DNA from: Eledone cirrhosa
Taxonomy: Eukaryota
Assembly: GCA_964016885.1 (NCBI GenBank)
Contig: OZ024745.1
Span: forward strand, 66,650,001-66,714,000
DNA: 64,000 bases
Reading direction: 5' to 3'
The notes under the pieces were generated by a model that made no database searches, had not been told where the DNA came from, and saw nothing but the letters and a program-made list of their open reading frames with translations. This document shows, piece after piece, positions 14,832 through 15,600 of the stretch. Each line of letters begins with the position of its first letter. The stretch's first letter is position 1. The translations under genes and the position numbers were made by a program.

Positions 14832-14911
14832 TCCCTGATGACGCAATGAATTCTCGACAGTTGGATTATGTAACTGTCTTTATCCCATTGCAGAAACTAA
14901 TTAGTTGGAGT
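14832..14911 (+). ncRNA. Type I hammerhead ribozyme (family B, 5' copy, stem I shortened)
   Basis: TCC CTGATGA CGCAATG...CATTGCA GAAA CTAATTAG TT GGA. Confidence 0.75.
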
Positions 14912-15383
14912 GAAAATTTAAGTAAGTAAGTAAAAAAATTTTTTAAAATTTTTTTAAAAGATATTTTCTTATTTTACGTCTTTTATATTATTGTTCTGCA
15001 CCCTCCTGCATTGAACCACCTAGGTACTATGACATAGCCTGTGTATTTGCTGGCATGGACGTACATCTGTGCGCCTATGTTAGTTGATATATTAAATTAT
15101 CTATATTTATCTCCAAATCACTGATTTGTCGAGCAAACCTGCCAAAACCACTTCAAAATTTTTTTTGGGGTGTTAGTAGGCGTCAGTCATCTTACCATCC
15201 CATTCCTTCTAACTGGCCTCTATGTCACGTGATTGATTCTTTAGAATCGGCCATTTGACTGGAAGCAGTGAGAATTTCAGTACATAGAATCCAGTCCTCG
15301 CCTAGCTGTTCTTTCTACCGAATTATTATTTTTATATGAGCCGCCAGTGTCCGCGCATTGCCTGGAGGCTCAGCTGAGAATAG

Positions 15384-15465
15384 ACTCCCTGATGACGCAA
15401 TGAATTCTCGACAGTTGGATTATGTAACTGTCTTTATCCCATTGCAGAAACTAATTAGTTGGAGT
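15384..15465 (+). ncRNA. Type I hammerhead ribozyme (family B)
   Basis: ACTCC CTGATGA C GCAATG...CATTGC A GAAA CTAATTAG TT GGAGT; inner stem GACAGTT/AACTGTC. Confidence 0.85.
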
Positions 15466-15532
15466 GAAAATTTAAGTAAATAAGTAAAAAATTTTTTTAA
15501 AATTTTTTTAAAAGATATTTTCTTATTTTACG

Positions 15533-15600
<68 letters not shown>

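Follow-up and report, generated by a model that had tools for sequence, protein, structure and literature searches.

A hammerhead retrozyme family of Eledone cirrhosa with the insertion pattern of Penelope-like elements

A dispersed repeat of the Eledone cirrhosa genome, here called family B, is a non-LTR retrozyme by all features that could be tested, and integrates in the manner of a Penelope-like element. We consider it likely that the family is transcribed, cleaves itself at a GUU and is reverse-transcribed into (TA)n tracts by a Penelope-like protein, probably from a circularised monomer. Penelope-like elements have been named as candidate mobilisers of animal retrozymes (Cervera and de la Pena 2020, PMC7229834), and Li, Clavereau and Pollet 2026 (bioRxiv 10.64898/2026.07.22.740005) argue in the same direction from co-occurrence and terminal-repeat homology, leaving the mechanism open. 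The new information reported here is the scars left by insertion, which provide insertion-level evidence on retrozyme mobilisation in a family of thousands.

The DNA analysed (the window) is a 64-kb stretch of contig OZ024745.1 (66650001-66714000), from a genome of 3.0 Gb. It contains two family B copies (Table 1) which, as the sequence-only reading had stated, have opposite orientations, periods of 554 nt (copy 1) and 533 nt (copy 2), and (TA)n adjoining all four ends; the GUU end at 15460 also lies where it had been placed. The same reading described a two-hammerhead element. Each copy is rather a partial tandem (1.28 and 1.4 units) with one hammerhead per unit, and for this reason carries two. 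A structural scan of the window detected complete type I hammerheads at 15384, 37732 and 37199. The first hammerhead of copy 1 is 5′-truncated: where it meets the (TA)n, only TCC is left of the ACTCC arm of stem I. The two copies are 86.7% identical across 682 columns, and no frame of at least 120 aa was found over either. The hammerheads had been thought to differ in the apical loop only, which is correct for one hammerhead of copy 2 but not for the upstream one, where one of two further changes breaks the GACAGTT/AACTGTC helix. The scan also returned a hammerhead-like match with a long stem II at 29178 (minus strand).

Table 1. Positions in the window of the family B copies, their parts and the adjoining coding element
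Feature	Positions	Strand	Remarks
Family B copy 1	14832..15540	+	1.28 units, 554-nt subfamily, 5′-truncated, terminates at site A
Copy 1, hammerhead 1	14832..14911	+	GUU end at 14906
Copy 1, full unit from cut to cut	14907..15460	+	554 nt; predicted circular RNA monomer
Copy 1, complete type I hammerhead	15384..15465	+	predicted cut after U15460
Copy 1, internal site A	14977..14988	+	CGTCTTT then TATA; unit position ~77-82
Copy 1, internal site B	15094..15106	+	AAATTATC then TATA; unit position ~195-204
Copy 1, terminal site A	15531..15540	+	continues into (TA)n
(TA)n 5′ of copy 1	14672..14831	.	common to the end of the adjoining Penelope-like element
(TA)n 3′ of copy 1	15538..15600	.	
Family B copy 2	37064..37815	-	1.4 units, 533-nt subfamily, terminates at site A
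Copy 2, upstream hammerhead	37652..37732	-	two extra distal stem II changes; GUU end at 37657
Copy 2, downstream hammerhead	37119..37199	-	GUU end at 37124
(TA)n at copy 2 3′ end	37009..37065	.	common, tail-to-tail, to a 660-nt hammerhead repeat
(TA)n at copy 2 5′ end	37815..37868	.	
Broken Penelope-like element by copy 1	11851-14673		minus-strand RT and GIY-YIG-like frames, inverted arm, short and long ends in (TA)n
Minimal hammerhead of the broken element	near 12110-12150	-	

The hammerhead at 15384 is made up of stem I (ACUCC/GGAGU), CUGAUGA, the helix GCAAUG/CAUUGC, a distal helix, GAAA and the palindromic AACUAAUUAGUU. The CUGANGA, GAAA and UH elements of the canonical core are present together with stems I-III. 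The base of stem II is non-canonical, having C after CUGAUGA and A before GAAA in place of the G10.1-C11.1 pair that flanks the canonical core. This C.A was found in 92 of 98 copies from the sample described below, and a G-C pair one step out in 94 of them. Searches against Rfam at the gathering and E-value thresholds gave no match to these hammerheads, and families carrying this conserved C.A variant are therefore likely to be under-counted. Irregularities at this position are known from other hammerheads: those of Penelope elements can have an unpaired base at position 9-10.1 (PMC4209133), and the axolotl retrozyme hammerhead HHR_Amex2 has U.U where family B has C.A (PMC7229834).

Helix III of a monomer has 3 bp with a palindromic loop, the palindrome being 12 nt long. 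In the monomer the active fold was 4.7 kcal/mol above an alternative in which CUGAU pairs with AUUAG (probability 0.85), and an inter-unit helix III was predicted at -9.0 kcal/mol. The ribozyme is predicted from these folds to be off as a monomer and on as a dimer; such masking of the core in a lone unit would protect a circle against renewed cleavage. All 15 representative units, folded whole as circles, lay below the shuffle mean, with z from -2.0 to -14.5 (12 shuffles for each). Self-cleavage at the GUU is likely, with a double hammerhead as the probable active form. Three points count against cleavage: the C.A base, results obtained with frog dimers, and U17, which is less favoured than other nucleotides at the cleavage position. 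In the frog work, eight of nine retrozyme dimers were reported not to cleave in vitro (bioRxiv 10.64898/2026.07.22.740005).

A pattern of the hammerhead core gave 9,149 matches in the genome and none when reversed, so the family B hammerheads are not chance occurrences. A body motif gave 6,093. The top matches of the 554-nt unit were 98-100% identical to it and lay on many contigs, in arrays spanning from less than one to about 10 units, with one type I hammerhead per unit. Clustering of 118 distinct units yielded 15 groups with lengths of 521-560 nt, a GC content of 0.34-0.37 and 58-99% likeness to the unit of the window.

To avoid selecting by the hammerhead, copies for the analysis of conservation were picked by the body motif. 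The first 100 listed matches, all on one contig (C1), were used, and 98 remained once two copies broken up by unrelated sequence had been dropped; a site was called variable when a second state occurred in at least five copies. None of 25 core sites varied, as against 69 of 136 body sites (Fisher p=2e-7, a guide only because the copies are related), and the longest invariant run in the body was 8. The core was intact in 85 of the 100 body-selected copies, the remainder having scattered changes or being interrupted. The proximal part of stem II covaried: pair 2 was C-G in 37 copies, U-A in 31, A-U in 28 and otherwise in 2 (n=98), and pair 5 was G-C in 45, U-A in 43 and otherwise in 10 (n=98). 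In the distal stem and loops 22 of 37 sites varied, and the sequence of the distal helix is not conserved across the family. The invariant core and the covariation in stem II support the proposal of the sequence-only reading that the ribozyme of a mobile non-coding RNA is under selection, and the outcome that would have spoken against it, hammerhead positions no more conserved than the body, was not what the copies showed. The two window copies alone give a weak signal, with differences at 2 of 81 hammerhead sites and 47 of 449 body sites (Fisher p=0.02). When contigs of two sequencing runs (X1 and X4) were aligned to copy 1, their variant letters pointed to the subfamily with a compensated stem II. 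The 331-nt contig of run X4, which is from another organism, matched body and hammerhead at window 15164-15479 apart from 6 differing letters and 4 gaps, its depth being about 3; it could be a relative's copy or contamination.

After removal of one duplicate from 161 merged regions, insertion ends were mapped in the remaining 160, a mix of best and pattern matches; the segmental duplicate L174 is counted twice in the 3′-end sample. The 3′ ends fell at two fixed sites, site A about 80 nt and site B about 200 nt past the GUU, both of which run into TATA, a microhomology to the target. Among 97 two-armed insertions, 86 combined an A end with a B end, none had A+A or B+B, and 11 had one non-canonical end. 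Thus all 86 insertions with two canonical ends were A+B, and the rule was seen across subfamilies. The second arms were inverted, with 3′ ends facing outward and no poly(A), and the gap between A and B forms a tail of about 120 nt at one end only. Neither the pair of fixed 3′ ends nor the inverted arms figured in the sequence-only reading. One-armed insertions ended at A in 42 cases, at B in 21 and elsewhere in 4. There was also a bias for insertion into microsatellite DNA: (TA)5 followed directly after 227 of 265 3′ ends and lay beside 46 of 66 single 5′ ends. The features of Penelope-type integration, including variable 5′ truncation, partial tandems and an inverted upstream arm, are present. 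Target-site duplications cannot be read because the flanks are (TA)n, and the paralogous flanks found for 7 of 156 insertions in an empty-site search were not decisive on the age of the TA tracts. None of the regions carrying Penelope-like protein matches had them on both sides. TA tracts also serve as common hot spots: at L095, L109, L175 and L282, copies from different family B subfamilies and other Penelope-like ends lie next to each other within a single tract.

The same kind of insertion was found for a coding family in this genome. The coding family that includes the broken Penelope-like element beside copy 1 has intact 1217-aa frames in many identical copies, one of them at C1:145226500-145233500 (L282). 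Inspection of the frame by eye showed RT motifs, a linker of the form CxxxxCxxC and a terminus resembling GIY-YIG; comparison of the linker with PMC8557442 suggests a reading as Neptune. Pfam searches with 19 frames of the window gave nothing above the cut-off, and the window's fragments of this element were not scored by Pfam. In nine of nine two-ended cases the 1217-aa family paired a short end with a long one, the two differing by 44-63 nt (two further regions showed one end only), which supports Penelope-like mobilisation of family B. Penelope-like elements have been described with an upstream arm in inverted orientation and with a tail of 30-40 nt that is often confined to one end (PMC8557442). 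In the anole element, for which a dimer is predicted, the RT starts internally at two sites downstream of the hammerhead; the tail corresponds to the distance between them, and both target strands are cut and extended (PMC11167929). Family B shows the two-start-site signature of the coding family in strict form, with one of each per insertion.

The 1217-aa family is the obvious candidate for the partner of family B, and a small RNA template with defined starts and a young, intact candidate enzyme from the same genome would allow the mechanism to be reconstituted. Its tail of 44-63 nt, compared with about 120 nt in family B, counts against the partnership. No homology to family B was found in two intact copies of the 1217-aa family or in the window's own element, nor in the terminal repeats at 40 of at least 150 GIY-YIG loci, a sample of few families; the only family B sequence at these 40 loci consisted of independent insertions in L133 and L144. 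Two other elements are further candidate partners with different end sequences, one with an RT frame of 938 aa and a GIY-YIG domain recognised also by Pfam (L136:3809-6622), the other with an RT frame of 1096 aa (L138:1775-5062).

To locate the 5′ ends, we counted them by unit position with an anchor on a conserved motif. Seven ends lay at positions 0 to 2, 19 at 3 to 20, 9 at -21 to -2 and 11 at 21 to 40. With a background of 0.5 per base, about 1.5 ends would be expected at 0 to 2 (P=9e-4), and the excess over the whole of 0 to 20 is also unlikely to be due to chance (P=4e-5, local background 0.5 per base). Five of the seven ends at 0 to 2 are from loci that had been selected because their body was complete. 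With moderate confidence, the excess fits run-off from a template cleaved at the predicted GUU cut; the ends at 6 to 9 could be due to stalling at stem I. Intact crossings of the unit junction numbered 290, as against 26 stops within 20 nt, a ratio that fits circles and uncleaved multimers equally.

The sequences of young arrays also bear on the form of the template. Each of 24 young insertions had one haplotype per array, in all units and in both arms. In L023 a private change was present in 4 of 4 informative pieces from both arms, and in L164 two private changes were present in 3 of 3. Arrays of a single haplotype imply a bottleneck of one unit followed by re-expansion, which a circular template gives directly, and we lean towards circular RNA as the template. 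Use of an uncleaved linear multimer, or template jumping, by the same element with a Penelope-like partner is the strongest alternative, though an unlikely one; the hammerhead would then serve only to free the RNA from read-through transcripts. Cleavage by the hammerhead is dispensable for the anole element, whose main template is uncleaved RNA (PMC11167929), so that circles are not required for a single insertion. The predicted masking of the monomer core and the prevalence of arms shorter than two units in the body-selected sample also agree with a linear template. Such a template can only shorten arrays, however, and the homogeneous arrays of up to about 10 units with one haplotype in both arms need a single-unit bottleneck and expansion. 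Other animal retrozymes, moreover, accumulate as circles (PMC7229834).

Arrays could instead have grown by unequal crossover after short insertions, making family B a dispersed satellite in which the hammerhead is a passenger from an old pseudo-LTR. Local amplification of arrays is favoured in bioRxiv 10.64898/2026.07.22.740005, and private changes with a period of 2 in L157 point to some post-insertion duplication, or to assembly noise. As an account of dispersal this explanation is largely refuted, and overall we regard it as improbable: the core is invariant while the body varies among subfamilies 58-99% alike, stem II has compensatory changes, very young copies lie on many chromosomes, and fixed 3′ ends occur with inverted arms.

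Two further origins are more improbable still. Units that were mere truncated pseudo-LTRs of a further coding Penelope-like element, a possibility raised in the sequence-only reading, would explain why the insertion architecture matches that of coding elements, and pseudo-LTR homology was found among the matches of 21 of 57 frog retrozyme families (bioRxiv 10.64898/2026.07.22.740005). Family B units, however, run head-to-tail for up to about 10 copies with no ORF between them, and the 65 5′ flanks of one-armed insertions had no shared continuation into a coding frame, the exceptions being one direct coding junction (L055) and neighbours that were TA-separated or antisense. Mobilisation by a LINE is equally improbable, for although twin priming yields inverted, truncated L1 insertions (PMC2837659), family B has outward 3′ ends on both arms at two fixed internal sites, lacks poly(A) and shares its end pattern with a coding Penelope-like family.

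On the reading that we prefer, a retrozyme RNA copied by a Penelope-like protein, a dimeric RT/GIY-YIG protein would nick both strands of a TA tract and prime once at A and once at B. The RT would copy through the intact junction in most passes, producing arrays, would stutter on CUCU when starting at B, and would sometimes run off a cleaved 5′ end. The stutter is suggested by the termini at site B. Where the template is TTCTCTATA, 26 of 33 terminal copies had 2 to 48 TC units and none of 61 internal copies was expanded; four of the seven unexpanded termini resemble mutated internal copies. A further 33 terminal ends had no TC unit and belong mostly to subfamilies whose template lacks TC. For the pattern of one subfamily, the whole genome contained 167 expanded copies (a pattern count, not individually checked) and 466 internal unexpanded ones. 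The TCTCTC at site A was unexpanded in 10 of 10 termini, and the effect is therefore site-specific. Slippage beside a long TA tract is a possible cause, but expansion was present in copies 97-99% identical, which makes replication slippage from a two-unit seed hard to invoke. We think it probable that reiteration by the RT causes the terminal expansion. A more tentative extension, which we would put somewhat short of even, is that a dimeric Penelope-like RT copies circular ribozyme RNA from two obligately paired starts, and that telomerase-like reiteration at one of them writes (TC)n and a hidden (TA)n at each insertion. In that case, TA tracts made by retrozymes and their partners would afterwards become targets of both. 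Terminal TC expansion bears on the link between Penelope and telomerase and on the origin of microsatellites.

Like metazoan non-LTR retrozymes (PMC7229834; bioRxiv 10.64898/2026.07.22.740005), family B has non-coding tandem units with one type I hammerhead each, a GC content below 50%, thousands of copies, a predicted self-paired circle, a palindromic helix III and co-existing Penelope-like elements. It differs in its C.A mismatch and long, two-part stem II, and the unit of 521-560 nt exceeds the 150-450 nt of PMC7229834 but is within the 51-972 nt of bioRxiv 10.64898/2026.07.22.740005. Expression and cleavage have been demonstrated for metazoan retrozymes in these two papers, whereas family B is known here from genome sequence alone. 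Targeting of (TA)n, two fixed 3′ ends, obligate pairing of A with B on inverted arms and (TC)n at the termini do not appear in the available text of either, and a literature search, with most subscription journals outside its scope, found no paper that reports for retrozymes a pair of fixed ends, an A+B rule or an expansion of TC at the termini.

The EN+ Penelope-like elements Neptune, Poseidon and Naiad (PMC8557442, PMC11167929, PMC4209133) share with family B partial tandems, 5′ truncation, an inverted upstream arm, a tail at one end, a bias for (TA)n and a hammerhead upstream of two RT starts. Family B is distinguished from them by its lack of an ORF and by a tail of about 120 nt compared with 30-40 nt. 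An autonomous Penelope-like element was rejected as a classification since family B has no RT/GIY-YIG ORF. In family B the starts match the target through a TATA microhomology; the anole RT, in contrast, initiates where there is no homology (PMC11167929). Non-autonomous Chlamys elements such as MRC1 (PMC8557442) are, like family B, non-coding dependants of Penelope with multicopy head-to-tail insertions. Their 3′ ends are similar to that of the autonomous partner, and a hammerhead is absent from most Chlamys elements (PMC8557442); for family B no homology to a partner was found, and the hammerhead is the most conserved part.

Other hammerhead repeats are present in the window. The second, of 660 nt (35700-37015), has hammerheads at 35986 and 36646 on the plus strand with U.U at the base of stem II, and terminates in the TA tract common to family B copy 2. 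The third (53090-53906) has two outward arms (53349, minus strand; 53583, plus strand) and A.C at the base of stem II; one end extends about 75 nt beyond the other as a tail, again a short and a long end. A minimal hammerhead with a U.U mismatch and a palindromic CTAG helix III lies at 46715-46900, and its motif recurs with a 511-nt period in L146. A partial match to U4 snRNA at 28512-28593 (plus strand, 64 bits) is likely a truncated copy.
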